A DNA stretch of 64,000 nucleotides from Naegleria gruberi (lineage: Eukaryota), in the NCBI GenBank assembly GCA_000004985.1, contig GG738873.1; one strand, written 5' to 3'. The first letter of the stretch is position 1, and every line of letters begins with the position of its first letter. The notes beneath the pieces were generated by a model that searched no databases, had not been told where the DNA came from, and saw only the letters and a program-made list of their open reading frames with translations. A program made the translations under genes and the position numbers. Below are positions 3,124 through 64,000 of the stretch, piece after piece.

Positions 3124-3154
3124 ATTAACATATATAAGATCCAAGATTTAAATA

Positions 3155-23900: not shown

Positions 23901-26900
23901 TCCATCCAAAACTAACGCATAGAAGTCTTCTCCACTTGAAAGAATTCTCGATGTGGCGTTATTTGTTGGAATAGTGAGAGTCACATTTACAGGAACAGGG
24001 CTTGTGGGGTTTACAATAAATACATTAGGCACTGGTTCATCAATTAAGGAAGTATCAATAGTGATAATAGCCGTATCATTCATTTTCTGGGTTTTCACTA
24101 ACTTATCGAGAAAAGAATCTGTAGTGCCTGGCATTGGTCTAGAAATAGTCAATTCTGTAAGATTTTGTTTCTTGTAAGTGAAATAGTAGCCGCAAACACT
24201 AATTTTTCTTATAGTTAAAGTTAGTAAAAACTTGCTATTATACTTCTTTTCAAGATTGAGAACAAAATCTTCAAACTGACCATCGGGAGTACATATAACA
24301 CTTCCATTAGAACCAGTAGAGTTGGATGATCCATTTGAGTTGTAATATGTTGTTGTGTTGGAACTTTTTGAATTGTCTACGTAACTCGAATTGTTTGTTG
24401 AGTCAAGATGAATAGGTGTGTTGCCACATGTTGTACAATTAGTTATTGTTGTATTGTCATATGTACAATTAGTAGTTGTGTTGTCAAATGTTGTACAATT
24501 AGTAGTATTATCATTGGCAACAGGAGGAATCTTAATAACATATTTTTCACTATCATAAAAATAGTAGGAAGGAGGTGGCAAGTCTGGTGATTTCTTTTCG
24601 TTGGATGATAGATCACTTGGGGAAATAAATAATATTTGGCTAGTTTGAAATGCATAAACAGTAACGAACTCGTTATAGTAAATACCAATGGATATATCTG
24701 TTTGGAATGCGGTAAGTAAATATCTTTCTGTAGCAAATGAAAAATGTTCCCAAGGCCAAGGGATTGTTGCCAATTTACGTACTTCGAAAATCTGAGATAG
24801 AGAGTAGACATTAATGCCCTTTTCACTGTATGTAATTATTCTTTCCTCTGTACCATTAAAAATTGAGAAATATGGTATTATCTGTGGATCATTGGATATT
24901 GTAAAAAAATCCAATTTTTCATCATATTGATTCAAGGATAGAATAAGAATAGTTTGATTTGATCCTTCCTCGATAATTGGCATGTATACATTGATTGTGC
25001 CGTCACTTCGTACTATAGGTTGTCCGTATCTTATTAGGTCTGGAGTGAACAGTGTATTACTAATTGAGGAAGATTTGTATTTCTGCTTATCTGAGTTAAA
25101 TCTTTCTATTAATAGATTGTTGTCATTCAAATTCAATACAAAATACTGAAGACCGTTGCTTAGTAACCTTAATGATCTTGGAGAGTTTGTTGGACCTCCA
25201 GTGGTTAAATAGTTTTGAAGATGTAATTCTTGTAGAGACCAGATTCCTATTGGAGAAATAGATGAAATGTAAAAGACAGGTTGTGTAGATAGGTCATAAC
25301 TTGCCCATGACTGATCAACGGTAACCAATAGTGAGCCTTTGAATACCTGGTATGTAATGAGCTTATCCTTAAATGACTCATAAGAAACAGGATTGTTTTT
25401 AAATTTGGAAAGTCTTTTTTGCTCTGAGCTACTGGTTTTTTTTGAAGAACTGGTAGTAAAATTAATAACAATAGGTTCCATTGTGTAACTAAGGTCAGCC
25501 TCAAAATTTGTTTTAAGCCCAATATAACCACCCAAAAGGACTACTGTTGTATCTATTATCTGACATGAAACACCATAATATGGTGTCTTACATTTACATT
25601 TTTCCGTAATCTCATCACAATAACCATTTCCACTACAAACCAGAGAACTGTTTCCACTAATTCCCCTGCATGTTACCTCGTAGTCACACTTATCGCCTTT
25701 AAAAAACTTATAACAATTGCAGGTATCGTTTTTCGTGCACGAACCATGGCCACTACAAACTGTTGGATCAGCTGATTCTTTCCCAAAACACATTACAATG
25801 GGTTTGTTGAATATTTCTGACGGGGTGGAATATTTTGGAGAGTATTTCAAACCACCTAATGATCCAATAAATTGCCACAAAAACCCATCCTTGAAATTTC
25901 TTCCAATAGAAGCACTTTGAACTACTTTGTCAACAGTTGCGTTGGCTGAAAGAGTTATATTAGTGGATAAATAGCCTTGGTAGCTATAAACACGAGTCTC
26001 GAAAGTGTCAGTACCGTCCATATTTTGGTTTCTAGTAATCGTTACTTGATATGTACTGTTGACTTTAAGGTTTGGATCCAAAACCATACTTTTTCCTTCT
26101 GCAATAGGTGACAAATCCACAACCAAAAACTTTTCTGAGCTAATGAAAACTTTGAATCGGTTTACATAATCAAAAAGGGTCATAGCAGATTCAAGTGACA
26201 ACGGAGAAAAGTAGAAATTGAATGTAAACTCACCACTAAGTAGCAAGTAAATATTTGGATCCGTAATTGAGCAATACGAGTCTTCAGAAAGGGAAACAGA
26301 GAAGTCATTATCAAGGCCAGGAGTGAGCTTTACATTTTCACAAGGAAAAGAAGCACCAGTAAGTTTGTCAACCAGATACAACTTAACTGGCTCTCCCTTA
26401 TAAGAATCGCTTGCTGAAGAAGGTACGCTAAAATATGAGCTGTGAGCTGGAACTCCGTAATAAATGGCTTGCCCTATTCGAAATGATTCAGATTGGCAGC
26501 TTACATCGTTGAAAAAATCAATAATATTAGAACAAAAAGGACCATCATGCAAGTAACTGTACATAAGTAGAGTCTCCTTAGTATAATCTAATTTGTTGTC
26601 TAACATATCGTAACAATAACCGTCCTGTTTCATATTACAAAAATTACCCACTCTAGATCTTGTCGAGGTTGGTTTACATTCACTATCTGGTGAATCGCCA
26701 GTGTTTTCACATTGGCAAACATCTTGATCAGTACAAGTTCCTTTTCCGCTACACACTCCAGGCTCATCAGCAAAAATACCAAAACATGATTTTTGAGAGC
26801 TAGTCTGTAAAATAAGTGACAACTTTTCAATTTGAACATGTGGCTCTATGACAAACATGCTTGAGTTACTAATGAAATTTACAAACGAATCCAAAGAGGA

Positions 26901-27473
26901 GAATGAATTAATACGAGAATTAATGTATCCATTAAGATTCAAATACACGCTGTTCTGATAAATAGTTACTTCCAAATAATTATTAAAACTACCAGAGACG
27001 GACTCGATGGATATCCACTCATTACCATTAAATAAACTCAGGACAATTTTGAAATTGGCCATATCAATTTTTAAAACTGGATTTGATAAAACTGAACAAT
27101 CTCCATCTGAGGTTGTAAAGTTCAATGCAAAAGTCTCTGCCTTAATAATGTTCAACATGTCAATATTTGATGATATTACAATTCCTCCATTACTCGCAGT
27201 ATCATTTCTTAGATATTTACTTTCAACATTTCCATTATTATAGTTCAATCTGTTCCATATCCAAGACTGAACATCCAAATCAAATTTGTAATATATGTTT
27301 CCAGTAGAAGCGCCTTCAACAACACTCAAATTTCCCAATAACATTAAGGCTTGTAAACAGCACAATGTCATAATGATCAGCAGCAAACCACCATTCCTAT
27401 TCGCATGCCAACGCGATGAAGAGTTAATTTCATCTCCTCGCATTGTTGAAACATGCAACTGTTGGCTTTTCAT
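17928..27473 (-). CDS. Giant type I membrane glycoprotein, about 3180 aa and apparently intronless. It has a signal peptide, scattered EGF-like Cys modules, an internally duplicated domain of about 110 aa, an Asn/Ser/Thr sequon-saturated region of about 900 aa, and one TM helix. Its short cytoplasmic tail is conserved with the giant gene at 48788-64000
   Basis: First ATG at 27473 ('MKSQQLHVSTMRGDEINSSSRWHANRNGGLLLIIMTLCCLQALMLLGNLSVVEGA'). EGF-like 'CFGVEQTSNLTCFGNGICISNDTCSCLENYIGLNCSIPVCFG...'. TM 'IVGGSIGLLLVVAFCATLVAGVGWYFI'. Tail 'RRKKKNNVGKYVFYDNN...LQDLFEKINT...TTTT..DAEEDDIGDFITRGVSYNTWV'. Confidence 0.8.
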   Translation of the reverse strand: MKSQQLHVSTMRGDEINSSSRWHANRNGGLLLIIMTLCCLQALMLLGNLSVVEGASTGNIYYKFDLDVQSWIWNRLNYNNGNVESKYLRNDTASNGGIVISSNIDMLNIIKAETFALNFTTSDGDCSVLSNPVLKIDMANFKIVLSLFNGNEWISIESVSGSFNNYLEVTIYQNSVYLNLNGYINSRINSFSSLDSFVNFISNSSMFVIEPHVQIEKLSLILQTSSQKSCFGIFADEPGVCSGKGTCTDQDVCQCENTGDSPDSECKPTSTRSRVGNFCNMKQDGYCYDMLDNKLDYTKETLLMYSYLHDGPFCSNIIDFFNDVSCQSESFRIGQAIYYGVPAHSSYFSVPSSASDSYKGEPVKLYLVDKLTGASFPCENVKLTPGLDNDFSVSLSEDSYCSITDPNIYLLLSGEFTFNFYFSPLSLESAMTLFDYVNRFKVFISSEKFLVVDLSPIAEGKSMVLDPNLKVNSTYQVTITRNQNMDGTDTFETRVYSYQGYLSTNITLSANATVDKVVQSASIGRNFKDGFLWQFIGSLGGLKYSPKYSTPSEIFNKPIVMCFGKESADPTVCSGHGSCTKNDTCNCYKFFKGDKCDYEVTCRGISGNSSLVCSGNGYCDEITEKCKCKTPYYGVSCQIIDTTVVLLGGYIGLKTNFEADLSYTMEPIVINFTTSSSKKTSSSEQKRLSKFKNNPVSYESFKDKLITYQVFKGSLLVTVDQSWASYDLSTQPVFYISSISPIGIWSLQELHLQNYLTTGGPTNSPRSLRLLSNGLQYFVLNLNDNNLLIERFNSDKQKYKSSSISNTLFTPDLIRYGQPIVRSDGTINVYMPIIEEGSNQTILILSLNQYDEKLDFFTISNDPQIIPYFSIFNGTEERIITYSEKGINVYSLSQIFEVRKLATIPWPWEHFSFATERYLLTAFQTDISIGIYYNEFVTVYAFQTSQILFISPSDLSSNEKKSPDLPPPSYYFYDSEKYVIKIPPVANDNTTNCTTFDNTTTNCTYDNTTITNCTTCGNTPIHLDSTNNSSYVDNSKSSNTTTYYNSNGSSNSTGSNGSVICTPDGQFEDFVLNLEKKYNSKFLLTLTIRKISVCGYYFTYKKQNLTELTISRPMPGTTDSFLDKLVKTQKMNDTAIITIDTSLIDEPVPNVFIVNPTSPVPVNVTLTIPTNNATSRILSSGEDFYALVLDGNQLIVYYYLPNDFNVPFRYSYCPGVFTPEQIRYGTPLLRKNGVLEFYMPIIEESKSQVQTIQKLSLTGGSNTVSSFKIANNPNAIPYFFIFDGFDESVVVVNEEGSFFYSVVVNGTSSDTELAMYYNNTKMSLKNSTRVYQTDNAIVISQADGSSILTPSDKLIEPVERKINTVLLPNPKTLYFDDAIYQVKTNESSISKGSNDVDKNSEGSNNQTVSNTASNNSTLGSQNTTSSNSSLSGTSTGSTNCTSSDSTNDTSSNNNTETFSDSGNNDTNSTGESRTTVSNNTAITNNQTLENNSSSYLNSNSSNGIISNSSNISNSTINFNSSTLQNNTDQLGGNTSISSSNNTSLNNQTNISNNQTIFGKNETNSTGIVDTLGSNNTVSNNTAMTNNQTLENNNTVSSNQTSISNNRNDTSNSGLNSTLVMNVTSSTNFKNSTQDSNYTIGINETSTDGLNTSQVVSNLTGSESLNNTSESSTNSTLNQTSNYNETIKNQSGSSNTSLDSATVNSTNTTNVVNETIIQNQTSVQNGSIIYSSNSTNTNNTNQESEGHNSTTIQNGTINSTNSLINVNSSNTINNYTSMSNDTMIQNSTNNNATSNSTINSSYNSSTTNSYSNFTNSTLNNSSNDNTTWNYNSNSTNNHGINSTINQNNSTSNGATNTTNVFNETLNKNQTSVQNGSIIYSSNITNNSNSNGNNSNSTVNNSSNGTFNVTNSHGNSSLLNNSDSSNITSIDNHGINGTINQNNSTSSGNNSIIDTTNSTSNINNGSSHSNQSSVISNSTTESLSNNSSNILNFSNISTNSSTSNITNSNGNYSTITSNSTTINTSNGTFTNSNNTSQNSSNLSSNVLNNSTSNYDTSNSTNETNYGSNSTILVSNNTSSQTNNSTISNSMNNSYPSVSNSSNSNTNSSNNSNNSTIDDSSPTGNNSSQVNGTTSMSDNSTLSHNSSNSSNNTTESNNGFNNSINSTSSNNGSNTSQSSNNSTSSSNASNSTIDSNHFTPNETLNTTTPTSNSGNNDPTAPSIPKTYCFGVEQTSNLTCFGNGICISNDTCSCLENYIGLNCSIPVCFGTPGINSSVCGGNGKCIEGNLCKCHDGFTGQLCQYQTTTELCKGSFVPAEQITVIDSNIYLQKSLMDTVCGKSLILQSTTLLEGIPSNVTNSNLLKYYTITTDVNTESGDKFLTFDTLLYKSKIPNSLIIWKIDKFSNATQMIIPIINTMDNATYGLVKIIDNPNGDLLGITLKDNSTNVTILEIDTSSKEANISSVFDKGPISFTDIDKGNQVFNPSTNTTTFTFFKEGTSNSSLLVSVNIEAPNETPKEIVIPQSTQKYFTLVLYDHPDQYLLSSDQQTTTISTIVPDIDSSSPEFNELASDSNFVVNKNDLVVLTKDTEKITVTNVNTDVSLIIAVSQLTPDSSVFDQSTQLTKFQPIAYINNDQSEATVLSIRKIYPLYVPVTGSIPIYLEGNYVLPGTRPYLILKYDPLNLILARLPVQTSGSRTRTTFKPFVNAKDLISNFPQDLVMKDSFKVSVQIELISETSDPIPISTDTELTLYRFDLLKVLPKQAYFGDRILAMATFFPPTNNVNLFIRQQYSTEETQIACTVLNSTFCSAKLPLLGTSDSIMNIRAALIQDSISSNYDTKLFIRYVDPEVVKVTSLDKFDTSISPPEDIPDQDTTPPIIQRQETTETVQPPLIIKMNIGKLNKSKCTDKPIRQVVASSDLHDISNIVSLDFKLSPFSNIENGNLIEFWISKKNNGTFFGGLSFENGKQVLSGGELSSGMKSSASCLFSSGVSYRISMKLTEKGTKWELKNINLDMIDCSLNFVSDNSKILAKPTGYQFGIGQAFSCAQLLSGISQIPELTVSSMMEVCVTCAKSDFSLTQIDYLPYIVGGSIGLLLVVAFCATLVAGVGWYFIRRKKKNNVGKYVFYDNNTSRDSTLQDLFEKINTNSSIDSTPTTTTEDFNMDAEEDDIGDFITRGVSYNTWV
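20800..23300. repeat. Low-complexity coding DNA inside gene 17928-27473, encoding about 850 aa of near-continuous N-x-S/T sequons (Asn about 30%, Ser about 30%, Thr about 15%) with internal imperfect tandem repeats
   Basis: The translated segment 'NSTNNNATSNSTINSSYNSSTTNSYSNFTNSTLNNSSNDNTTWNYNSNSTNN...' shows recurring units such as 'NQTSVQNGSIIYSSN(I/S)TN'. Confidence 0.8.
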
Positions 27474-28961
27474 CTTGTGGCGCGACAACGGTTTATCTAC
27501 AGTTGAAGTGTTGGTTGTTCTTTTCTGTATAGTTTGTTATGAGAATTTTTTAAAAGGTGATATTGATTTTTTGGGTTGATATTTGGGTCTCTGTTCAGAC
27601 ATGTTTGAGCGCACTAAGGTGATGGATCACCGAGATCTGGAAAGATACTAAGCGCGAGCCTTATCATGCGTGGATTTTGGTGTGAGGCTCAACAAACTCT
27701 TTCAATTGCTGCATTGTTGTGAATGGTCTAGAATGATAACGTCCACTTCAAAAAAGGTCTATTCATTACAGTGATTACCGTAAATTGAGACACAAATCCT
27801 CACGCAACAACTGTTGCACATCAGCTAATAGCAGCAATACATTTTGATTCAATGGAGAATATTTAAAATTATGATGAATTTGATTTGATCCGAGGGATCA
27901 CGTTGCAGTTTCTCAATTTTTTCATCTAATAATATTTCCATGTGAATACTTTCAATGATGATTTTGTTGATGATCTTTAATCCTATTGTTGCTCTCTTAA
28001 GTCAGCTCATTCAATGAAATTAATGCTCATCTAGATAGATTATTACAATTTTTTCATCTTTAATTCTTTACATCAAAATATTTGACGATTTTTTGATATG
28101 GAAAGAAAAGTGATGAGTGAAATTTGATGATTTTAAAAAAATATTTTAACAAGAAAAATTTCATCAAATTCGCAACATGTTTCATCATGGATGATTTTCA
28201 AAGGCAATTCTTCATCACTTCCAAAACCATTTTCAACACAACATGATACGATCATTTGGAATGTATAGAAATTAATTTTATTAAATTTCAACATGAATTT
28301 CAAATTTTAAAAGGCAATGATTAAATTGATGGCGAGTCTTGTTCAATTGGAGAGGTAAAATTCACTTTATTGAATGATAATCATCAGAAATATAACAAGT
28401 AAATGGATGCCATTCTTTTACTTGAAATAGAATTTCATCAATTTATTAATTTTAATATTTTCATCATGAAAAACATCAGACAAGACAATAAGAAGACGAT
28501 GGGCATGTTCTAAATGTTCATTAACATCACCTCAGAAAGTTTCAAAACTTTCCATCAAGCACATGTAGAGTTGGAGAAGATAAAGTAAAATTTAATTTCA
28601 TCAAAGTGAAAAACACTTTTTGGTAAACCTGTTCAATTTCAAGAGGAGGCACAAGATTTGTTATTGTACCACATCATAAAGAATGTTTTGCCAATGTTTT
28701 TCGATTATTTTCCAGAGATGATAAAGTTGAATTTTCACATGCTTCCAAACATTATTCATTCATTATTTACTTGATAAATCTTCATCAGGACAATAATAAA
28801 TACATCACTTGGATGTTATCTAACATTACTATTCATCTCATTGTTTCACTCCAAAAGTTTTCCAAGATATCCAACAATCCTCCCAACAAGAATATTTTAC
28901 CATCATATTTCCAGCAAAGAGTTGTATGAATTTGATTTGTCTTTCACATTTTGATAAGAAT

Positions 28962-48787: not shown

Positions 48788-51700
48788 TTAATTCCATACA
48801 GCATAACTATTAACCATAACATTAGGATCTGCATCATCATCATCAAATTCTGGCATAACATTTGTTGTTGTTGCTGTAGATGAGGACATTTGATCATCAG
48901 AAGAATTCATCTTATCAAACAAGTCATTCATTGCATCTTGTAAATCATCTCTGTTGTGGGCATAATCATAAACAGAATACTTGCTACTTCTCATCTTCTT
49001 TCTTCTGTAATACCAAATACCAGCAACAACGAATACCAATACTGTAACTATTAAAATAATTGCAACTGCACCAGAAATTGCTCCAGCAAGAATGGTTGTA
49101 ATATTGGAGGATTCCATGTTAGGTAATAAAGTGGCATGGGCAACACACTTTTGAACTTTACAAGCAGCCACAATATTGTACAAATCTGTTTCAATGTTAA
49201 TGGTTGGCTTATTTAGAATTTGAGTACAAGTTACACTACTTTCCAACCTTAATGTGTAATTATGAGAGAACTTTTCAATAAATTGAGGGTAAGTGATTGG
49301 GAGAATAAAAGAGTTAGAATTACAAATGGCATCTCCATTGCTGTCCTTGATTGTGTAAGAGAGAGTGGCTTTCCAATCCTTATAATCTTGAGAGGACCAT
49401 TCAGAATAATCTAATTGAGAGAAACTGTGTGTAACCTTCATATCTAACTTCATATTTTCACCTTCTTTAAAGTCACAACGAGTAGATATATTTTTGGTTT
49501 CAAATGAATGTACCCAAGTTACTTCAGAATAAAGANNNNNNNNNNNNNNNNNNNNNNNNNNNNNNNNNNNNNNNNNNNNNNNNNNNNNNNNNNNNNNNNN
49601 NNNNNNNNNNNNNNNNNNNNNNNNNNNNNNNNNNNNNNNNNNNNNNNNNNNNNNNNNNNNNNNNNNNNNNNNNNNNNNNNNNNNNNNNNNNNNNNNNNNN
49701 NNNNNNNNNNNNNNNNNNNNNNNNNNNNNNNNNNNNNNNNNNNNNNNNNNNNNNNNNNNNNNNNNNNNNNNNNNNNNNNNNNNNNNNNNNNNNNNNNNNN
49801 NNNNNNNNNNNNNNNNNNNNNNNNNNNNNNNNNNNNNNNNNNNNNNNNNNNNNNNNNNNNNNNNNNNNNNNNNNNNNNNNNNNNNNNNNNNNNNNNNNNN
49901 NNNNNNNNNNNNNNNNNNNNNNNNNNNNNNNNNNNNNNNNNNNNNNNNNNNNNNNNNNNNNNNNNNNNNNNNNNNNNNNNNNNNNNNNNNNNNNNNNNNN
50001 NNNNNNNNNNNNNNNNNNNNNNNNNNNNNNNNNNNNNNNNNNNNNNNNNNNNNNNNNNNNNNNNNNNNNNNNNNNNNNNNNNNNNNNNNNNNNNNNNNNN
50101 NNNNNNNNNNNNNNNNNNNNNNNNNNNNNNNNNNNNNNNNNNNNNNNNNNNNNNNNNNNNNNNNNNNNNNNNNNNNNNNNNNNNNNNNNNNNNNNNNNNN
50201 NNNNNNNNNNNNNNNNNNNNNNNNNNNNNNNNNNNNNNNNNNNNNNNNNNNNNNNNNNNNNNNNNNNNNNNNNNNNNNNNNNNNNNNNNNNNNNNNNNNN
50301 NNNNNNNNNNNNNNNNNNNNNNNNNNNNNNNNNNNNNNNNNNNNNNNNNNNNNNNNNNNNNNNNNNNNNNNNNNNNNNNNNNNNNNNNNNNNNNNNNNNN
50401 NNNNNNNNNNNNNNNNNNNNNNNNNNNNNNNNNNNNNNNNNNNNNNNNNNNNNNNNNNNNNNNNNNNNNNNNNNNNNNNNNNNNNNNNNNNNNNNNNNNN
50501 NNNNNNNNNNNNNNNNNNNNNNNNNNNNNNNNNNNNNNNNNNNNNNNNNNNNNNNNNNNNNNNNNNNNNNNNNNNNNNNNNNNNNNNNNNNNNNNNNNNN
50601 NNNNNNNNNNNNNNNNNNNNNNNNNNNNNNNNNNNNNNNNNNNNNNNNNNNNNNNNNNNNNNNNNNNNNNNNNNNNNNNNNNNNNNNNNNNNNNNNNNNN
50701 NNNNNNNNNNNNNNNNNNNNNNNNNNNNNNNNNNNNNNNNNNNNNNNNNNNNNNNNNNNNNNNNNNNNNNNNNNNNNNNNNNNNNNNNNNNNNNNNNNNN
50801 NNNNNNNNNNNNNNNNNNNNNNNNNNNNNNNNNNNNNNNNNNNNNNNNNNNNNNNNNNNNNNNNNNNNNNNNNNNNNNNNNNNNNNNNNNNNNNNNNNNN
50901 NNNNNNNNNNNNNNNNNNNNNNNNNNNNNNNNNNNNNNNNNNNNNNNNNNNNNNNNNNNNNNNNNNNNNNNNNNNNNNNNNNNNNNNNNNNNNNNNNNNN
51001 NNNNNNNNNNNNNNNNNNNNNNNNNNNNNNNNNNNNNNNNNNNNNNNNNNNNNNNNNNNNNNNNNNNNNNNNNNNNNNNNNNNNNNNNNNNNNNNNNNNN
51101 NNNNNNNNNNNNNNNNNNNNNNNNNNNNNNNNNNNNNNNNNNNNNNNNNNNNNNNNNTTTCTTTTGGTAAATCCAATGTTTGATGCAGTCTTCTTGATTA
51201 CATTCAACTTGATGAATGTATTCTTAACTGTATTCACAAGGTAAATAATATCGTCAACTTTAACAATACTGATCTTGTCAGAGTATTCGGAAAATTGAGA
51301 AATACTTGATGGGTAATTAGCAATTTGTTCAAACTTCATAGAATCTGTCCATAGATTGGTTTTGGAATCTTGTTGAGTAACATTTGCAATAAAGATCTTT
51401 GTTCCTTGATCAGTAATGGTGGCAATCAATATCTTGATACCTGAGGCTTCAGTAGCAGAGATTAGCGCTCTAGCGTTAGAAACTGCGTCCTTGTTTGGGA
51501 ATTCAACAGTTGATATGATTCTAACTCTAGCATCGAAGAAAATAAGGGTTGGTGTTAAGGTATATCTATTACTAGCTGTAAAGACAATTGAAGTAGTATT
51601 ATCAACAACAATATTCAAATCCTTAACTGTTTCTCTGTTGAATGTATGATTGTACAATCGTTTGTTGTCGTATAGGGTTGTCTTGATAATACTGTTTCCT

Positions 51701-54700
51701 GAGATATCTCTAGCAGATAAGGATTCATAGAATTCAATAGTAGTAACTGTAAAATTATTTGTGTTAATGGTAATACCATACAAAACAGAGTCCATAATAA
51801 AGATCTTATCAATTTGGTCTGCTTCAGTAAGGCTTGAAAGGTATTTCCAGTTTGAAATTGAGTCAACAATATCCATTTGTGTATAAATTAAAACTGAGAA
51901 ATCATCATAATTAATTACTGTAAAGTAATAAGTCCCATCAAATATTGTTGGAGTAGTAGATTTGATAGGAGATGAAGGTAAACCCAACTCGGAAAGTTTT
52001 TGGGAAGATATGACCACCAAATTACTGCATGCTACATCCATTACAATAATGTCAACCGATTTGGAAGTAACTGAAACAGAATTGACTGTAATATTGGAGC
52101 AAGACTTACTGCTGTCAAAATATTCACAATTCTTGCCGGTAAATTCTTGCTCACAAGAGCAAACATTAGGGAAAACACATACACCATGAGTGCTACAAGC
52201 ATCAGCCAAAGTCTTGTTAAAGCAAACAGGAATGGAACAATTTTCTCCTCTATAATCAGGCCTGCAAACACAAACATCTTGTGAGATACAAGTACCGTGA
52301 GCCGAGCAATTATTTCTATTGGCACAATCAAAGTATGAAGTAATGTTACATTCAATACCCTCGAATCCATAGTCACAAGTGCAATTGTTTGGAGCAGCAC
52401 AATATCCTCTATTACAAGCGTCCTTACCATACTTTTCGTAACAAATAACATACTGACATTCTTCTCCAGTATAACCTTCAGAGCATTTGCAATTATTGTT
52501 AGAAATACAAGCACCCCTGCCACTGCAAACTTGGCTATTATTGACAGATAAACCATAACAAGTATACCAATTACATGTATCAAAATCGTTACAAGTACCC
52601 TTCTTGGCACATACGTTTGGATCAGTGGCTGGTAGTCCATAACAAACCGGTGTAGAACAATTGGTTCCGATATAACCATTGCATTTACAATTGTCTGGAT
52701 AGGTACAATTTCCGTGTCCATTACAAACATTGGTTTCATTAGCTGGAATGTTATAACAAATAGTAAATTCACATTTTGGACCTGTAAAACCTTCACTGCA
52801 TTGACAGGTATCTGGCAAAGAACAAATACCACGACCAGTACAAACATTTTGAGAGTCTGAAGCATTAAAACCATAACAAATTGGAATGGAACAATCTTTT
52901 CCAACATAAGTTGAAATGCATAAGCATAAATCTGTATCGTTACAAATACCATGCCCATAACAAACAGTTGAATCATTTGAAAGAATGTCGAAACAATTTG
53001 AAACTTCACAAGCTGAACCAATGTATCCATTTGAACAAGTGCAATGGTTTGCATAATCACAGGAACCGCGATTGGAACAATCAGTAATATTGTTGACAAT
53101 ACAAGTCCAGTTTTGACAATTATTTCCAAAGTAGTTTGTTTCACATTCACAAGTATTATTGCCAATACATTTTCCTCTGGAGCTACAAACATCTGTTTCA
53201 TTACTTTCCACACCAAAGCAATGGTAGTATTCACAAACATCTGGTGCAATACATTTTCCAATTCTTCCACAAACAGTACTTGTATTAGATACCACACCAT
53301 AACAATTGGTAAGGGAACAGTCTGGAGCAAAGTACCCAACCTCGCATGTACAATTATTAGGTGAACCACAAATACCTCTTCCACTGCAAACTTCTGTTTG
53401 GGTGGAATCAAAGCCAAAGCAAATAGGAAGGGAGCAGCTTTCTCCATCATAAATAGGATCGCAAACACAAGTATCCTTATCCACACATAAACCATGTCCA
53501 GAACAAACATTTGAATCATTTGAAAGAATGTTGAAACAAATGGAAACTTCACAAGCATTACCGACATGTCCTTCTTCACAAACACAGTGATTTGCATAAT
53601 CACAGGAACCGCGATTGGAACAATCAGTAATATTGTTGACAATACAAGTCCAGTTTTGACAATTATTTCCAAAGTAGTTTGTTTCACATTCACAAGTATT
53701 ATTGCCAATACATTTTCCTCTGGAGCTACAAACATCTGTTTCATTACTTTCCACACCAAAGCAATGGTAGTATTCACAAACATCTGGTGCAATACATTCA
53801 CCAATTCTTCCACAAACATCTGGGTGAGTCAAACGTAATCCACCACAAGTTATAATTGAACAATCGACACCATCGGTATTGTTGTTACAAATGCAGGTAT
53901 CAGGAGCAACACAAACACCCTTAGAGCTGCAAACTCGTATGTCTGAAGAATTGAGACCAAAACACATAGGAATAGAACACACACTTCCAGTGAATGTGGA
54001 ATTGCAGCTACAGGTGTCATGAGAAATACATTCACCATTGTTGCTACAAACACCAGATTGGTTGGATAACAAACCATAACAAATTGGAACTTCGCAGTTA
54101 GAACCATAATAACCGTCATTGCAAACACAAACATCTGGTTCAGAACACAATCCGCTTGAAGAACAAACTGTTTGCTTGTCTGATGGAATTCCGTGGCAGA
54201 CAGGATATTGACATTCAGGACCACTGTATTGTGAAGTGCAATTACAAACGTTAACAGCAACACAATGACCATGACTATGGCAAGTACTGGAACTGTTGGA
54301 TGAAATATTAAAGCACTTATGGAACTCACAGTCAGAACCATCGTGTTCATTATCGCAAGAACAAGTGCTTTCAAATTCACAAACTCCAAAGCCACTACAG
54401 ACCGTTGTGTCATTACCTCTTTTACCATTACAAAGAACAAGGAAAATATCAGGCAATGCTTCACCCAATGAGAATTCTAAACTATACAAGGAGCCATCCA
54501 ATTTGGCATCAGAAACACCTGGTTCCGAACCAATTGTGTTTTGTTTTCCCTTGTTGAACACAGTATTTCTTATCCTCCAATCATCTAGCAAAGTTGAGTT
54601 TACTAGTTTTCTAGTACCATCAACAAACAGGCTAGTACCATGGTTTGTGCTCTTAGAGACAGCAACGGTGTGAATATTATTTTCAAAGGTATGTGGTATG

Positions 54701-57700
54701 TTGATATGGGATTCTAGACCATCTGACAAATTGAAACTTAATATCAAAGTGTTATTTTTGTAAACTAATTTCCAATCGGCACCACAAGCAAAATTGAATA
54801 GTGTATGAGTTTTTGAAGGAGAACCATTCATTTTGAATGTAAGAGAAACGGTAAAATTGTTAGAAAACCATCTATCGAATGGTTGATAAACTCCAAGCTT
54901 ACCAAGCACATCAGCCTGTCTTATTGAAAGGGAGATATTTGAGGAGGTAGTCACTTCAGTGCCGTACCCATCAGTAGTGTTGTCGTAAGCCACTGCAACG
55001 ATATCATTGTCAGAACCATTTCCAAACACATATTTTCCTTCGACATATATTGACGAGTTGAAAATTATTGTCTTGTACATAGGTTCCTTTGCTGATAATT
55101 TACAGTCATCACCAAAATAAGGACTGGTACAAACACATGTGTCAACATCAATGCAAGCACCATGATTGGAACAAACTTTTGCTGTGTCGTTAGCATACGC
55201 ACCAAAGCATCTTGGAATTTCGCACCAAGTACCAATCCAATCTTTCTTAAGGTTAGGGTCTGTAGCGTTTGTAGGGTTACAAATGCAATTATCAAGGGAG
55301 TCACATTTTCCATGGGCACTGCAAACTTTTATCAGATCGGTATTTAGAATGTTATTACAAAAATGATATTCACATTTTTCACCAGTGTATCCAGTCTTGC
55401 AAAGACAAGTGTGATTATTAGTGCACTCACCATGTTTACTACAAGCAACGTCGTAGGTTTCATTATGGCATTTAGGCTTAGAACAGTAAAGATCTGTCCA
55501 CAAGTCTTCGCAAGTGCAGTTATTCTTATTATGACAAGTACCGTGACCATTACAAACGAATGTACTGTTGGTGTTCATTATATTATTACAAGTAAAGTCT
55601 TGGCAATACTCTCCATAATAATCGCTAAAGCAGTCACATTTGTTGTACTCAATGCATTTACCTCCTTCATCTTTCTTTTTAAACGAACATTGCACGTTAT
55701 TATCGGAAGAAAATGGAATTCCAAAACAAACAGGACCTTCTTGGTCATAACGGCTTTGTAAACTTTGAGGACTATTCTCAATAGAGATGGTGCTATTGAT
55801 AGTCAAAGAGCTAAGTACAGCAGCATCAAACCTCAGGTTGGATATGCTTCCCATAAAGTATGATTCCCTTGTACTTGGATTATAGCCAATCGCTGACATT
55901 ATATGAATATCAATAGTACGTCTCCAAGAGTAGGTTGTATCAGTGTCCACAAAGCAAGTAGAGAACTCATTGTTAAAACAAACTGAAAGTCCGTTACTGG
56001 TAGAATCTTTAGTGACAGAAACAAAGTAGTATCTATTATATTTCAATAAGTTGCTAACCGATCTAGTTGTGTATTGATCAGTTAGAGACAGTGTAAATCC
56101 ATCAATGGATTCAGTTGCAACTAGCTGCCAGTAGCTTGGAGATCCCATGTAAATAACTGTTTGGGAAGAATTTCCATCCTTCTTTTCTTTCTTCAGCCAC
56201 AAAGTAACGGTGAAATCGTTGTGGAAGAAAACCATGTTTGAATCATGGGCAATGTCAATCTTTGATGATGATCCATCAAAGTAAATACCACTTCTATTTG
56301 AGTTTAACCCATTTGTAGTAATACAATTTTCGCACTCCAATTCTTCGTTGCAATACTTGGATTTTAGACTGTCTGTTTCTTGAACGAGATGTCCTCTTAT
56401 GAATGTCGAATAACCTTGTGTAGTCAAGTTATTGAAATCATACACTTGACTTGTGGCAACCAAGCTGCAATCATCAGCAACATATCCCTTCTTACATTCA
56501 CAATTGTCTGTATATACACAAACACCATGTCCAGAACAAACGTCGGAAGACAATGTAGAAATACCGTAACAGGTAGTGTAGTCAGCAAAATCTTGAATGG
56601 CCTGTTTATCTGAAAAGCCTCCTGCAACAAGAGCAATGAACTTGAAGAAACCATTCAAGGAAGTAGAATTAACATTGTTAAAACCGAAATAAGTTTCTGT
56701 TACCGCTACTAGACTTGTAGTTGATGACAATCTTACAGATGGTAAACCATTGATATAAATGGTAACACCTCTCTGCTTTGACTTTACAAGCGTTACAACC
56801 ACAACAGAGTTGTCAGAAGGTACAACATTATTGTCTGTTTCCACTGTTTCAATTTCAGATTTGTTACTGTTCAAATAGCCAATATATCTAATCGAATTGA
56901 GTGGAGTCTTTTCCAAGAAGAAATTTGATGAGACTATTGGCTGGGCTTGGGTAGATGTATTATCAAATGAAAGTACTATTGTAAATGAAAATTCAGTTTT
57001 GATATTGAAAGGAGAGTTTAAATAAGGTGTAAAGTAGCTATTTTCTCCGTTAAATATAGCACCCTTGTTGTTTGTTATGGTTGCATTGTTGATTATCATT
57101 TGGAAGAGACTGTCTCGGTCAATTACTACTTTGTCCTCAAGGATTGCTTTTGGGTACCCTATTGGTTGGTCAGCAAGAGCAAAAACAATTCTGTCTCCAT
57201 CTCTTAGCGAAACAGAGGAAATAGACAATTTTGGTAATGTTGAAAGTAAATTACAGAATGGTGCACAGGACAGGGTTGGTGTTGAATTTGTGCTTGAAAA
57301 GAAATCTGATGCATTATCAGTTGTACAGACACCATCAGTAGTATTGCATGTGGTCTTACTTGAATCTACTTGACAATTGGATCCAACGTAAGGAGTTTTG
57401 CATTCACATTTATCTGGAGCAGAACAATATCCTTTACCTGAGCAAACTGTTTTTTCATCTTCAGCTGAAACACCAAAACACAACGGAGTTTGGCACTCTT
57501 CACCAGTGTAATTACCATTACAGACACATACATTTCCACCAAAGCAAACTCCATTATGGCTGCACACAGAACTTTCAAGTTGGGAAATTCCAAAACATGT
57601 AAACAAACTAGTATCCACCCCAGAATAGTTGATTGGATCTATTCTGATAAGGATGAGAGATTCTAAAGTTCCGTTCAAATAAATAGGCAAGTCATTCACC

Positions 57701-60700
57701 AAGTCATAACCCACAAAGCTTTCACTTGTCAAAGAAGGATTTAAGGCTAGGAATTCTGGAACACCTCCAAAGAGTCCAAGAGGATTACCGTTTACCAGAA
57801 CAGTTGTCACGTAACTTTTAACAACATTTACATGGTACAGTAAACCAGTGTATGGAATGGCATCCTCTACGGTTAAGGTAATTGGCGATAGAGATGTTTC
57901 ACTAATTCCTTGGATAACAAGAGAAGACCCATCCAAAAAGACTTTCCAGTAGCCTCCATCTTTGAGACTTATGATTGGTTGGATTCCTCCCAAAGATTGA
58001 AGTCTAATATCAAAAGACAAACTAAAGTCATCAGAAAACAAGGTCAAAGGAGACGGATCTTCCAAAATATCGAAGATGACAGATGATTTACCAAATTGTA
58101 AATAACCATTGTTATCAAAAGAAGGATTCTCCACCATTAGGTTAACATGATAAGCTAAATCAAGCAATATTCCGTACATAGGGGCATTAATATCGAAAGA
58201 GTGTGTCAAATTCGAATTTACCACCAATGAGGTATTGTAAGAGATGAACTTGGAGTGTGGTGTATAAACCAAACGATAGTATGGATTTTCTTCCAATGTG
58301 GTTGTTTGGGTAGTCTTAATTTTTTCAATGTAAGAGTTGTCAACTTGACAGTTATTGCCGGAATACCCTACTTTACATTTACAAAAGTCTGGTTTAGTAC
58401 AAGTTCCCTTTCCAGAGCAAACATTCTTATCTTGTGATTGAACTTTGAAACATATTGGGTACTTGCAGTTAGTTCCATAATAACCAACTTTACAAGTGTT
58501 AACAGTGGTATTGACCACACTTGGCTTTGCAGTTGGGTTTGTCGATAATCCACAAAACATGGCTTCAGCGGTAGTTTTTGTATTGTTACAATCAATACCA
58601 ACCTCTATCGTTCCATTGTTAGTCTTATTCAAGTAGTTACTTGGATCATCTAGAGTACAATTAGGATTTCCTTTACATAGAGTGTTTGTAACATCAATAG
58701 AACAGTTTGCTCCAATAAATCCAGGATTACAGGCACATGTATCAGGTGCCTCACAAAGTCCTTTACCAGAACAAACTCTCTTATCATCCGAAGCAATACC
58801 AAAACAAACTGGAGTAGAGCATTTAGAGCCAGTATAATTAGAATTACAGGAACAAACATCCAAACCATAACATTTACCATGGCCATTACAAACTGATGGT
58901 TCAAGTAAAAATGTACCATCACAAGTAAATGCTCTATCAAGTATGTCAGTTGGTGATTGTGGTGTTGAAGCAACAACTATCTTACGTATTTGACCCATAA
59001 AATGTGATTCCTTTCCATCCACAAAGTTATAGCCTATTCTTGCACCCATATCTTTACCTGCCATTGTATTCTTATAGTCTCTACTGAATACAGAGGTGAA
59101 AACTTCCTTATTATTTACAACAACAGATGTACCACTTATGGACGATTTGGTGATTAATATAGAGTAGGGCACATGTTCTACCTCTATTACATATGGAATT
59201 GATATTACTTCAGGTTTTATCAACTCTTTGGTATTACCTTCAATAAACAACACACGGTCAAGCAAGTAAATGTTAAAAGCTGCAACATCAGAAACGAAAA
59301 GTATAGGACTAATTGCTTCGAAACTGTCAATTGTCAGATCTATGTAAATAACGAAATCGTTGATGAATGGGACAAACAGTTTTGAGGTTGGGATGTCCAT
59401 TTTTGCAAGTTTGGGAACAATATAGCTGGCACTATCCACGGACAAGCCTGAAATTTGAACAGTTGTTGAATTTCTAAGTTCAACTAAATTACCAGTTTCG
59501 TCTAAATAAGCTTTGTGAAGCATAAACCTGATGTACGGAATTGTATTATTGCTACTGTCAGGAAGATTAGTTTTTGTAAGGTTATTTGCGGTTAAGTTGT
59601 TGTTTGTAAAGTTACTACTTGTAACATTGTCAAATGTGAAATTGCCCCTACTATTTGTATAGTTATTATATGTGAAATTACCAATTGTAATATTATTGCT
59701 TGTAAAGTTACTAATTGTAAAGTTACTAATTGTAATGTTATCACTCGTAAGGTTACGGATTGTTAAATTAGTATATGTGAAATTACCAATTGTAATGTTA
59801 TCACTTGTAAAGTTACTATTTGTAAAGTTACCAATTGTAATATTATCACTCGTAAGGTTAGTGTTTGTAAAGTTACTGCTTGTTGAATTAGTATATGTGT
59901 AATTACCAATTGTAATATTATCACTTGTAAAGTTACTATTTGTAAAGTTACTGATCGTTAAATTAGTATATGTGTAATTACCACTTGTGGTATTCTCATA
60001 TGTAAAATTATAATAGGTAAAATTGTTGAGTGTCAAATTCGGTATTTCCGTAATTCTCATCACCTCGTTTTCTGGATAATTTGCATCATTTTGGCAATTT
60101 TGTCCCGTAATAGAATTTCTAAAACATTTACAAAAATCAGGCTTGGTACAATTACCATTTCCACTGCAAACAAGTGGATCTTCTGATTTAACACCAAAAC
60201 AAATTGGTAAAGAACAATTTGATCCATAATATCCTTCTCTGCAAGTGGTTACATTTAAGAGACCTGTTGCATTCTTCTTGGAGCAAAGATACAAATTATC
60301 ACCTGTTGGGTTTGTACAATCAATTTCAAGATCAAGAGTTCCATTAATCTTTGTATTATTACATTTACCTTCAGGATTGGTACATGTCGCCATACTAACA
60401 TTTGTTTGACACTGTGTGCCAATAAAACCAACTTTGCAAGAACATTGATTTGGTTTCTCACAATAACCATTTCCTGAACAAACCTTAGAAAAAGTGGCAG
60501 GAATATTAAAACAAACTGGAATATTGCAGATTGAACCAATGTAAGTGACATTACAGATACAATTATCATAACCAACACATTTACCATTACCACTACAAAC
60601 TTTTGGTGAGGTCATAGATATATTTGCACAGGTGAAAGATTTGTCATTCTTTGGAGGATATTGCGGATCTTCAATAGGTGGAAGATTATCATTGAGTGCA

Positions 60701-63700
60701 ATTTCAATCAAATCTAAAGTTCCTGAAAATCCAATAGTGGATCCATCATCCAAAATATCAAAACCAATGTAGCTGTCTCTATTTTGATTCAATGTATCAA
60801 TATAATCATAACTGAAAACACTATTATAACAACGTTTGTTGTTGATGTATACTTGTGTCCCCATTGATTTTGATTTCATTATGAATACATCATAAACCTG
60901 ACCTATTAACTCAATTTCATTTGGTACAGAGATTATATAAGGAAGAGGAGAATCTAAAATACTGGCCTTAATAACCAATGTCGTTCCTGTCAAATAAATA
61001 TTGAAAGAGGCACCACTTTGTATGTTCATGATAGGATTGTATGATTTAAACTCTGTTGGTGAAATTGAGAATGAAACGTAAAAGTTGTTGGTAAATAAGT
61101 AAAGAATTGAAATGACATTGTTGGTATTCAATATTATTTGAGTTCCATCTTTGAATGAAATTATGTTATCTTGATCAATTACCAAATTCTTTACAAGTAC
61201 CTTCATTTCACTTCCAAGCTCTTCAATATACATATTACCATCAATGTCTGGTTCACTTATATAAAGAGGATCAATAACAAGTCTAAAACTAGTAAGGTTT
61301 TGTTTCAATTCATTTTGTAAATTAGTAATATTTTGTAGTAATTCAATATTTACACCACAATCTAATCTTGTAAATGTTGAATTAAAACATTTACAAAAAT
61401 CAGGCTTGATACAATTACCATTTCCACTGCAAACAAGTGGATCTTCTGATTTAACACCAAAACAAATTGGTAAAGAACAATTTGATCCATAATATCCTTC
61501 TCTGCAAGTGGTTACATTTAAGAGACCTGTTGCATTCTTCTTGGAGCAAAGATACAAATTATCACCTGTTGGGTTTGTACAATCAATTTCAAGATCAAGA
61601 GGTGTATTAATAGTTGTACAGTTACCTTCAGGATCCATACATGTTGTCATAGAAAGGTCTGTTTGACATTGTGTACCAATAAAACCAACTTTGCAAGAAC
61701 ATTGATTTGGTTTCTCACAATAACCATTTCCTGAACAAACGTTAGGTAAAGTTGCCGGGACAGTAAAACAAACTGGTATGTCGCAATATTTACCAATATA
61801 AATCCCATTACATTCACACAAATCATTACCATAACATTTTCCATTGCTATTACATGCTTTTGGTGATGTCAAGTAAATACCATTACAAGAGTAAGCAAGT
61901 TGGTCGTTCACAATTGCTAATATTTGTGAGTAATTATTACTACCTATTTTGGACATTTGGATATCATCAATAGTGCCAGAAAATGTGATTTTGTTACCAT
62001 CTTTAAAATCAATACCAACATAACTATTGGCAGTTTTGTTAGAAAGTGAGGTCAAAAAGCTGTAACTGAAAACACTATTGTACTCCTCATGTCCATTAAT
62101 ATAAACTTGAGTTCCGTCTTCAAATGATTTCATAATCAAAACAGAATATTCAATGTTAGTGAATTCAATACCATTAGGAACTAGCTGTACTATTGGATAG
62201 GGGAATTCTACAGTCAAGCCTTCAATGGCTAAAGTTGTGCCCATCAAGTAAATACTGAAGCAGGCCCCACTAGTAATATTCATTATTGGATTGTAGTCTT
62301 TGAATTCAGTAACCACAATCTTGAAGGAAATGTAAAAATCATTGGTGTACGTGTATAAGGGAGAAATAGTATTGTATGTACTGATGATTAAACCACTTCC
62401 GTTTTCGAAAGAAATTGTACCATTAGAGACAACAATGTCAACAACGGTAATCTTTAAAGATCCACCCAATTCCTCTAGCACAGCAGTGTCTGTATCAACA
62501 GCGAGCAATTTTCTTCGAGTACTAAACTTTTGACTGCCAGAGCTTGGATAAGTGGTATTTTTTACAAATGTTGGGCTAACTTTTAATCTAAAACTATAGT
62601 CAGGATATTCTGTTCTCATGTTGTACTGGATTTTAATCAACTCTTTAATGTATTCGTTATCAACACCACAATCTCTTCTAGAGAACGTTGAGTTATAACA
62701 ACGACAATAATCAGGTTTTGTACAATTACCATTTCCATTGCAAACAAGTGGATCTTCTGATTTAACACCAAAACAAATTGGTAAAGAACAATTTGATCCA
62801 TAATATCCTCGTGGGCAAGGGTTACCGGGCAATAAAGGTAACGCAACAGATTTACCACCACAAAGATAAATTTCTGTATCAGTTTGTGGATTGGAACAAT
62901 CGTATTCGTTAATATATTTTCGAGTTCTAAAATACTTTGTTGGGTCATTTGCAAAACAATCACCATTTACGTCTGTGCAAGTTGTTGCACTTAGATCTGT
63001 TTGGCATTGTTCACCAGCATATCCAACCTTGCAAGCACAAAAACCTGGTTTCTCACAGTGTCCATTTCCAGAGCAAACCTGAGAACAGTCAGCGGAAATA
63101 CCAAAGCAGACTGGAATATCACAATTTGATCCTGTGAAGTTTCTGTTGCATTCACAAACGTTATTACCATAGCATTTACCATTAGAATTACAAACTTGAG
63201 GGGATGTCAAGTAAATTCCTGCACAGAAGTGTCCCTTATTCTCTCTGAGTAAATTAGCTACTTCAACCGAGGATAATCCGAGGTTGCTGCCGATTTGAAT
63301 ATCATCAATATAGCCATTTAAACTTATTTTATGGCCTTCCTTAATGTCAAATCCAATAAAACTATCAGCATTTTGTTGGGGTAAAGTAACAACAAAGTCA
63401 TAGCTAAATGGAGTAGAATACCTCAATACCCCATTAACAAATACTTGAGTACCTGTGCTAGTTGATTTGGTTATTAATATTGAATATATCTGATTTTCAA
63501 CTTCAACTTCTCCATGAACAGAAATAATGAACGGGGAAAGTTCAATTGTATGGCCTTCAAAAACCAATGTGGTTCCAATTAGATATATGCTAAATGAAGC
63601 CCCACTAGTAATGTTCATGATAGGATTGTAATCAGTAAATTCTTCAATTATCAATTTGAAAGATATATAGTAGTCATTAGTAAATAGATATAAAGGGGTA

Positions 63701-64000
63701 ATGTTTGTCTTTGTGTGCATTATGACCTCAGTACCATTACGGAAAGAAATTGAATTATTATTCAAAACAAGGTTATTGATTTGGATAGTCATATTACCGC
63801 CCAGTTCTTGCAAATATTTCTTGTCAGCAGTAGTGAACATAAAGTCCGAACTAAGTTTAAGTCTGAAAGAATAGTTGGTATCGTTGGCCTTCAAAAGTTG
63901 TTGAATAGTGTATAATTCTTGTAAAAAGGTAGCATTATTACCACAGTTTTGTCCGCTTATGGAGGATTCAAAACATTTGCAAAAATCAGGCTTAGTACAA
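48788..64000 (-). CDS. Giant type I membrane glycoprotein of more than 5000 aa. Its 5' end lies beyond the window edge and an assembly gap falls inside it. It consists of alternating blocks of Dictyostelium-type EGF-like modules and ConA/LamG-like beta-sandwich modules of about 270 aa, a roughly 1200-aa run of almost pure EGF-like modules, an N-x-T sequon array, a TM helix, and a cytoplasmic tail conserved with gene 17928-27473
   Basis: The ORF 49519-63894 is open to the window edge (upstream reads 'CTKPDFCKCFESSISGQNCGNNATFLQELYTIQQLLKANDTNYSF...'). The ORF 48788-49453 is open upstream into the gap ('...LYSEVTWVHSFETKNISTRCDFKEGENMKLDMKV...'). TM 'ILAGAISGAVAIILIVTVLVFVVAGIWYY' and tail 'RRKKMRSSKYSVYDYAHNRDDLQDAMNDLFDKMNSSDD...TTTN..EFDDDDADPNVMVNSYAVWN'. 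EGF modules such as 'CSGNGKCYGNDLCECNGIYIGKYCDIPVCF'; beta-sandwich repeats such as 'YNPIMNI(T/Q)SGA.FSIYL.GTTL..EG...'. Confidence 0.75.
49536..51157. other. Assembly gap (run of N) inside the giant gene
   Basis: 1622 consecutive n characters. Confidence 0.99.
52900..53980. repeat. Intragenic tandem duplication with a period of 540 bp (two copies; about 180 aa of EGF-like modules each), including a core of about 240 bp that is essentially identical
   Basis: 53048-53264 is identical to 53588-53804 ('tttgcataatcacaggaaccgcgattggaacaatcagtaatattgttgacaatacaagtccag...'). The protein block 'CGRIGKCIAPDVCEYYHCFGVESNETDVCSSRGKCIGNNTCECETNYFGNNCQNWTCIVNNITDCSNRGSCDYANHC' occurs twice. Confidence 0.85.
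59550..60060. repeat. Coding microsatellite-like array (9-15 bp units, 'aattgtaaagttact' type) encoding about 45 consecutive N-x-T/S sequons (about 150 aa of almost pure NFT/NYT/NLT/NIT triplets)
   Basis: Translation 'NYTYTNLTISNFTNSNFTSDNITIGNYTYTNSTSSNFTNTNLTSDNITIGNFTNSNFTSDNITIGNFTYTNLTIRNLTSDNITISNFTISNFTSNNITIGNFTYNNYTNSRGNFTFDNVTSSNFTNNNLTANNLTKTNL'. Confidence 0.85.
60060..64000. repeat. Intragenic tandem array of units of about 1.26-1.3 kb (at least three copies plus the start of a fourth at the window edge), each encoding one EGF cluster plus one ConA-like beta-sandwich module. Blocks of about 200 bp are near-identical between copies
   Basis: 'acatttacaaaaatcaggcttggtacaattaccatttccactgcaaacaagtggatcttctgatttaacaccaaaacaaattggtaaagaacaatttgatccataatatcc' recurs at about 60125, 61385 and 62700 (variant). 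'gcaaaaatcaggcttagtacaa' at 63979 begins another copy. Confidence 0.8.

Follow-up and report, generated by a model that had tools for sequence, protein, structure and literature searches.

Pentapeptide repeat proteins (PRPs) are built from tandem five-residue units, four of which make up one coil of a four-sided, right-handed beta-helix (PMC8145042). Their consensus, here numbered from i-2 to i+2 around the central residue i, is [S,T,A,V][D,N][L,F][S,T,R][G] and includes N-L-T/S; a broader, updated version reads (A/C/S/V/T/L/I)(D/N/S/K/E/I/R)(L/F)(S/T/R/E/Q/K/V/D)(G/D/E/N/R/Q/K), and at least eight contiguous repeats serve as criterion for the recognition of such proteins (PMC8145042). Eukaryotes contribute 13.7% of the sequences in the pentapeptide family PF00805 (PMC8145042). 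An example from eukaryotes is luminal domain 4 of SV2A/B/C, a PRP-type beta-helix with central Phe residues that is exposed by a membrane protein on its luminal/extracellular side. The luminal domain of SV2C (SV2C-LD), a PRP of five coils, carries three conserved N-glycosylation sites, and one of its glycans matters for the binding of botulinum neurotoxin A (BoNT/A). Here, a repeat array is described from Naegleria gruberi. It is located in the giant gene NAEGRDRAFT_58267 within a stretch of 64,000 nucleotides of contig GG738873.1 (GenBank assembly GCA_000004985.1; hereafter the window) and consists of 32 units of the five-residue type N-[F/L/I/Y]-T-x-x. By its sequence, the array is pentapeptide-type. 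That it represents a divergent pentapeptide-type beta-solenoid module of about eight coils and about 4 nm, which would act as a rigid spacer or platform with outward-facing and probably partly glycosylated N-x-T motifs, seems modestly probable and is the reading favoured in the following.

Organization of the array

59560..60039, minus strand: pentapeptide-type repeat array (register, counts, shuffles, tandem-repeat analysis, phmmer, library matches and Pfam)

The repeat is read in the sole open frame of the minus-strand open reading frame (ORF) 49519..63894 and encodes 160 amino acids (aa), corresponding to aa 2324-2483 of the public protein XP_002676246.1. Twenty-six contiguous units are followed by a two-residue insertion (RG) and six further units; the translation starts with NLTLN NFTYY NFTYE NTTSG NYTYT NLTIS NFTNS NFTSD NITIG and ends with NLTKT NLP, the terminal unit being NLP. 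The first position of the unit is N in all 32 cases, the second is occupied by F, L, I, Y or V in 30 (F13, L8, I5 and Y3, then V, T and S; F/L/I/Y in 29/32), and the third is T in 31, with T being lost only in the terminal unit. Positions 4 and 5, in turn, accommodate eight different residues each. A preliminary description of this DNA, prepared from its letters alone, had placed an N-x-T repeat at 59550-60060 inside the giant gene, and the repeat is indeed real and highly non-random, with the slightly narrower limits given above. Likewise, nearly all of its sequons do have aromatic or aliphatic centres; they are, however, not back-to-back NFT/NYT/NLT/NIT triplets, as the unit comprises five residues (N-h-T-x-x, with h for a hydrophobic residue).

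Altogether, 31 sequons were counted in the 160 aa, every one of them N-x-T, instead of the approximately 45 proposed before. Their spacing is exactly five residues in 29 of 30 intervals, and the remaining interval of seven residues results from the RG insertion. After 20,000 shuffles with composition kept, 14.0 +/- 2.6 sequons (maximum 24) and 0.98 five-residue spacings (maximum 7) were obtained, compared to 31 and 29, respectively, in the actual array. The density of 19.4 sequons per 100 aa clearly exceeds the value of 2.7 in the rest of the protein, but one sequon per five residues is well under the theoretical maximum, so that a near-maximal density cannot be claimed.

A frame error in this region, which would have given a different protein, was not found: the frame is open over 14 kb, 200 codons of an alternative frame contain 44 stops, and the public gene model follows the open frame as well, with the identical 160 aa (100% identity). 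The 480 nucleotides (nt) of AT-rich repeat thus stay open throughout. The only plus-strand ORF within the array (59672..59902, 76 aa) was taken as an antisense artefact of the repeat. A second array of the N-x-T pentapeptide type was found in no frame of the window.

Relationship to pentapeptide repeat proteins

Tandem five-residue units with N at i-1, an L/F-type residue at i and T at i+1 are the features which the array has in common with PRPs of the families PF00805, PF13599 and PF13576 and their Rfr-type beta-helix, which is right-handed and quadrilateral. With 26 contiguous units, it extends well past the eight repeats used for recognition. Measured against the broader consensus, i-1 fits in 32/32 units and i+1 in 31/32, and position i is L or F in 21/32, plus I, Y or V in another nine, but i-2 fits in only 13/31 and i+2 in only 6/31. 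What had been described as a pure sequon array, and appeared to be a new device, is corrected here to a divergent pentapeptide-type repeat: the period of five with a hydrophobic or aromatic centre is the pentapeptide-repeat signature, and N-x-T is already part of the family consensus.

In a phmmer search against the PDB, the best matches of the array were 'beta1' chains (5dra, 4yc5, 4yei and 4yfo) with E-values of 1e-7 to 1.5e-6. The sequence of these chains is an A-[ND]-L-x-x consensus repeat, to which the array aligns in register, N on N and F/L/I on L. They are presumably consensus-designed pentapeptide solenoids with solved structures; a literature search on PDB code 4YC5 gave nothing relevant. 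The natural pentapeptide proteins 3n90, 6fls and 2w7z match more weakly (E 0.2-3). When a library of 1.84 billion representative proteins was searched with the array, 1014 proteins matched at E <= 1e-3 and 57 at E <= 1e-10, among them P0004 at E 8e-27 and P0012 and P0013 at about 2e-16, although E-values between low-complexity repeats are inflated. The latter three proteins all score more than 250 bits on PF00805. Ten top library matches were additionally scanned with Pfam, and all of them lie well past the cut-offs for PF00805, PF13599 or PF13576; P0004, for instance, reaches 671 bits and a sponge protein (P0003) 104 bits on PF00805, and a fish protein (P0002) obtains 74 bits on PF13599. The kind of array is therefore already known, and N-x-T pentapeptide arrays past the Pfam pentapeptide thresholds are present in public databases, at variance with the earlier description, which was not aware of comparable pure sequon arrays. 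Literature searches for pentapeptide repeats in Naegleria and for tandem pentapeptide arrays with sequons gave no relevant result.

The Naegleria array also differs from most family members. Its N and T are invariant, whereas D/N and S/T/R vary in most PRPs, and it resides in a eukaryotic ectodomain composed of EGF and jelly-roll domains, whereas most members of the family are bacterial.

Repeat DNA and growth of the array

59663..59965, minus strand: higher-order block duplications within the array (TRF periods of 105 and 120 nt)

At the DNA level, Tandem Repeats Finder (TRF) detected 20.3 copies of a 15-nt period (67% matches) at 59649..59952. Higher-order periods measure 60, 75, 105 and 120 nt; among them, the 105-nt period is best (92% identity over 1.9 copies), and the 120-nt period shows 83% identity over 2.2 copies. 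Pairs of 15-nt units are on average 65% identical, and exact repeats reach at most 34 nt (at an offset of 120 nt). The DNA had previously been regarded as a microsatellite, a designation which these values do not sustain. Instead, the array is a degenerate protein-coding repeat that was enlarged by block duplication. With regard to the earlier idea that it may act as a length-variable glycan spacer, the degeneracy of its units argues against high slippage rates.

Codon usage adds two further aspects. Neither the Asn nor the Thr codon varies in its first two bases across the 31 full units, and the Asn wobble base is split between T (16) and C (15). As these first two codon bases are invariant while positions 2, 4 and 5 of the unit have diversified, the pattern indicates that Asn and Thr are under purifying selection, with the other positions drifting. 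At the same time, ACA is used for Thr in 26/31 units, whereas the rest of the gene uses ACT about as often as ACA, and this dominance suggests a shared, fairly recent origin of the units.

Host protein and domain context

51158..64000, minus strand: part of the giant gene NAEGRDRAFT_58267 in the window, with alternating jelly-roll domains and teneurin-type EGF runs
48788..49453, minus strand: C-terminal exon of the giant gene past the assembly gap, with a single transmembrane helix (aa 5293-5322) and an acidic cytosolic tail
60040..60144, minus strand: end of a teneurin-type EGF run (KPDFCKC...NCQ) and short linker NDANYPENEVMRITEIP into the array (translation, Pfam)
58930..59541, minus strand: jelly-roll domain of the ConA-like lectin / laminin-G / CBM40 type directly after the array (paralog alignment, AlphaFold2, Foldseek)

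NAEGRDRAFT_58267 encodes a protein of 5396 aa (XP_002676246.1 / EFC43502.1), which is annotated as 'predicted protein'. The frame of its listed ORF (49519..63894, minus strand) runs on beyond the right end of the window, and the gene is interrupted by an assembly gap (Ns at 49536..51157) that is spanned by the public gene model. Past this gap, ORF 48788..49453 corresponds to the protein from aa 5236 onward and contains its one and only transmembrane helix, which is C-terminal to the array. Because the array lies N-terminal to this sole helix, it is likely placed on the luminal/extracellular side of the membrane. No obvious signal peptide was seen at the N-terminus of the gene model. ORFs near the giant gene carry eukaryotic domains, namely DEP+RGS, RCC1 and BTB.

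According to Pfam, the giant protein contains many teneurin-type EGF repeats, and disulfide-rich EGF domains are found on both sides of the array. Between the EGF runs, five modules of about 200 aa without Pfam match were located at 57604..63873 (minus strand). Of at least five such paralogous copies within the window portion of the gene, the jelly-roll domain following the array is the fourth. An AlphaFold2 model of the module, based on the five paralogs in the window, has a mean predicted local distance difference test score (pLDDT) of 56, with residues 61-150 averaging 55-85 per 10-residue block. In a Foldseek search of this model against the PDB, sialic-acid-binding CBM40 domains were the best structural matches (E 5e-7), and laminin LG and pentraxin were also matched. 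Based on these modelled modules, a carbohydrate-binding role of the giant protein appears possible.

Comparison of the paralogous modules also reveals how the array is placed. The stretch from KPDxCxC to IYL comprises 138-158 aa in three of them versus 294 aa in the array-bearing fourth. Since this stretch is longer only in the module with the array, the latter is an insertion of about 155 aa within one inter-module linker. For annotation, the region can be described as a repeat module of a surface protein of N. gruberi (5396 aa) that is otherwise uncharacterised.

Related N-x-T arrays in other eukaryotes

Long, strict N-h-T-x-x runs in eukaryotic proteins of secretory or membrane type are likewise found in the sponge Sycon ciliatum and the fish Diretmus argenteus. 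The Sycon protein XP_065190326 contains approximately 30 SNFTQ/R units together with Sushi, LRR and EGF domains, and the Diretmus protein KAM3863986 contains approximately 67 DNVTI units after NRF and acyltransferase_3 domains. Over the matched stretches, both arrays are 52% identical to the Naegleria array, yet their host proteins are unrelated to the Naegleria protein. Their units are far more uniform than those of Naegleria, which suggests a more recent expansion. The sponge array clears the PF00805 threshold, whereas the Naegleria array clears none. With the fish array, the Naegleria array shares the hydrophobic residue at i+2 and a Pfam profile limited to Pentapeptide_4. A non-Ala residue at i-2 combined with a hydrophobic i+2 also occurs in fish (DNVTI), frog (INITI) and metagenomic (GNLTL) arrays. 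As both the Sycon and the Diretmus protein are uncharacterised, they offer no functional precedent.

Further strict N-h-T pentapeptide arrays were observed in a frog alpha-2-macroglobulin-like model (INITI) and in a frogfish protein. Some of the metazoan N-h-T arrays (P0002, P0003, P0026 and P0043) may be annotation or assembly artefacts, and none of them is characterised.

Sequons and predicted glycosylation

With a pentapeptide repeat placed in the eukaryotic secretory pathway, each N-L/F-T unit turns into an acceptor of oligosaccharyltransferase, so that solenoid folding and co-translational glycosylation compete for the same residues. In N. gruberi, the N-glycosylation pathway is marked as almost complete (PMC4973528). 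In human cells, clusters of two or three NXT sites separated by spacers of two residues were found to be fully glycosylated, whereas modification in yeast was slower and less complete (PMC6761772). The spacer between the NXT sites of the array comprises two residues as well. Given the near-complete pathway, the modifiability of clustered NXT sites and the luminal precedent of SV2, some N-glycosylation of the array sequons is plausible as a prediction from sequence. The SV2 case differs in number and geometry of sites, though: its luminal domain has about five coils and three sequons, whereas the Naegleria array has one sequon per repeat, and the glycosylated N559 of SV2 is at i+2 from the central F557, whereas N is at i-1 in the array. 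No sequence relationship between the SV2 luminal domain and the Naegleria array was detectable.

On its own, N-x-T periodicity is no evidence for a glycan function, because N-x-T lies within the pentapeptide consensus and because long A-N-L-T-x arrays occur in pentapeptide proteins without sign of secretion, such as a TIR-domain protein and a YjbI-type protein. In the bona fide bacterial proteins P0004, P0031 and P0032, on the other hand, 46, 49 and 45 adjacent [DN]-h-[STR] pairs were counted, respectively, whereas strict N-h-T pairs number just 5, 2 and 0. Since N and T in every unit are more than the fold demands, the strictness of N-x-T in the arrays of Naegleria, sponge and fish could result from additional selection in favour of the sequon, bearing in mind that the list of library matches is biased towards N-x-T. 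The three arrays would be natural test cases for the occupancy of sites five residues apart and for its tolerance by a beta-solenoid.

A second sequon-rich protein in the window

An internal comparison is provided by a second giant membrane protein. In its ORF 17928..27488, aa 1426-2225 (window 20814..23213, minus strand) form a low-complexity tract of 800 aa that is rich in N, S and T. This tract, five times as long as the array, has 142 N-x-S/T sequons, which are irregular and without a single dominant spacing. The two regions share their genome, belong to one class of giant single-pass membrane proteins and are similar in sequon density (17.8 versus 19.4 per 100 aa in the array), but the tract mixes N-x-S with N-x-T and has neither a five-residue period nor a conserved hydrophobic position. 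The tract resembles a disordered sequon-rich stalk, and the array a structured repeat; the tract may be regarded as the better candidate of the window for a disordered, glycan-saturated stalk.

The two giant proteins have a homologous transmembrane helix and acidic cytosolic tail, encoded at 48788..49453 and 17928..18599 (both minus strand; BLASTP E 7e-13). Common motifs of both tails are KY.xYD...RD..LQD.F.K.N and a C-terminal SY.xW, which points to a family of giant Naegleria surface proteins that share a sorting or signalling tail.

Proposed arrangement and alternative explanations

In the proposed arrangement, tandem block duplication in one inter-module linker of a giant membrane protein would have given rise to the array, and its 32 five-residue units would be enough for about eight coils of a four-sided beta-solenoid. 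Following the geometry of the PRP fold, the central F/L/I/Y residues would be packed inside the solenoid, with N and T pointing outward. The resulting short, rigid rod of about 4 nm may serve as spacer or interaction platform between the EGF run and the lectin-like jelly-roll domain. Each outward N-x-T is at the same time an acceptor for oligosaccharyltransferase, so that the rod would probably carry some N-glycans. The sequon would then be a by-product of the repeat consensus, possibly exploited, rather than the reason for the repeat.

Several observations weigh against this arrangement. Position i-2 of the array is S/N/G/T/D instead of the canonical inward Ala (consensus fit 13/31, by S and T), and i+2 is often I or Y (consensus fit 6/31, by N and K); given these residues, packing may differ from that of canonical Rfr folds. 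The only Pfam match of the array, PF13599 (Pentapeptide_4), reaches 17.0 bits (E 0.0064) and is under the gathering cut-off of 38 bits, and, as mentioned above, E-values between such repeats are inflated. A single-sequence AlphaFold2 model of the array is all-beta but of low confidence (pLDDT 41), and Foldseek found nothing significant for it, its matches being to other solenoid types (best E 0.64). Occupancy of most of the 31 sites by oligosaccharyltransferase before folding, with glycans every 4.8 A per face, may leave a compact solenoid unable to form. Finally, protein searches retrieved no orthologue of the array/jelly-roll/EGF region from another Naegleria species, but they also missed the identical N. 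gruberi protein. In these searches, a query of array plus jelly-roll domain had no match, jelly-roll plus EGF matched only metagenomic EGF proteins, and the array alone had no match at E <= 10; as the identical N. gruberi representative was missed, such negatives do not mean absence in the case of very long or low-complexity proteins.

A different explanation would be an extended, non-globular stalk carrying maximal N-glycans, in the sense of an 'N-linked mucin' spacer or shield, with the hydrophobic centres being incidental. It would account for T, the better acceptor, in all 31 sequons, where the fold would tolerate D at i-1 and S/R/K/E at i+1, and for the contrast to bacterial P0004, P0031 and P0032 with their few strict N-h-T pairs (5, 2 and 0). 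It would also agree with the luminal position of the array in an organism with near-complete N-glycosylation pathway, with full glycosylation of two- and three-site NXT clusters with 2-residue spacers in human cells (PMC6761772), with the retention of strict N-x-T in the extracellular-type pentapeptide arrays of sponge and fish, and with the missing confident AlphaFold2 fold. A glycan carrier, however, needs neither a strict five-residue period nor F/L/I/Y in 29/32 units, and the unconstrained sequon-rich tract in the same window exhibits irregular spacing and a composition of N, S and T only. Moreover, N-L-T is a preferred repeat unit even without glycosylation, as seen in the TIR-domain and YjbI-type proteins. 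Hence, such a stalk appears rather unlikely. The idea that the array might be both a four-sided solenoid and heavily glycosylated, that is, a rigid 'glycan bottle-brush' with an N-glycan ladder on each face of a protein-templated scaffold, is regarded as quite improbable. If it were true, the Naegleria, sponge and fish arrays would represent convergent use of the pentapeptide consensus as a self-organising sequon lattice.

Alternatively, the array might be a functionless, near-neutral minisatellite expansion in a flexible linker, whose regularity would stem from recent duplication of one founding unit. Its absence from the other three comparable linkers of the protein, the block duplications at 83-92% identity and the shared recent origin suggested by ACA in 26/31 Thr codons would all be in line with this scenario, and no orthologue that would show conservation was retrieved. 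Nevertheless, units that are just 65% identical and have diversified at positions 2, 4 and 5 never lost N and lost T only in the terminal unit, and the frame has stayed open over 480 nt of AT-rich repeat, which makes neutral expansion a rather doubtful explanation. Hardly to be expected, finally, is an unglycosylated solenoid with outward Asn/Thr ladders that bind ice or a polysaccharide lattice in the manner of T-x-T / T-x-N antifreeze faces. On the geometry of the PRP fold, each face would indeed present ladders of the invariant N and T that flank the inward residue, ice-binding solenoids of insects and bacteria are among the weak, non-significant structural matches of the array model, and P0004 additionally matches the CfAFP family in Pfam. 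This reasoning is purely geometric, though, with a fold that is not confident; the protein passes through the endoplasmic reticulum, where the same Asn residues are acceptor sites, and ice-binding homologues are absent among the significant matches. The divergent pentapeptide-type solenoid remains the favoured reading.

Other features of the window

Runs of N, i.e., assembly gaps, are present at 986..3123 and 49536..51157. Four overlapping 'ORFs' at about 900-3165 and three at about 49504-51244 are artefacts of translated Ns. A cluster of ORFs at 5355..6959 (minus), 7144..8595 (plus), 9492..10376 (plus) and 14360..15340 (minus) is characterised by a heptad-like Q/L-rich segment near each N-terminus. 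The heads following these segments differ, consisting of RCC1-like repeats, EGF repeats or an unknown domain, and Pfam support within the cluster is confined to the RCC1 part of the first ORF (5355..6959). The Q/L-rich segments themselves share wording such as 'VQLQSIMDKA...' and 'QSQLAALQKQL', and most ORFs of the cluster display an N-terminal hydrophobic stretch that could be a signal or anchor sequence.

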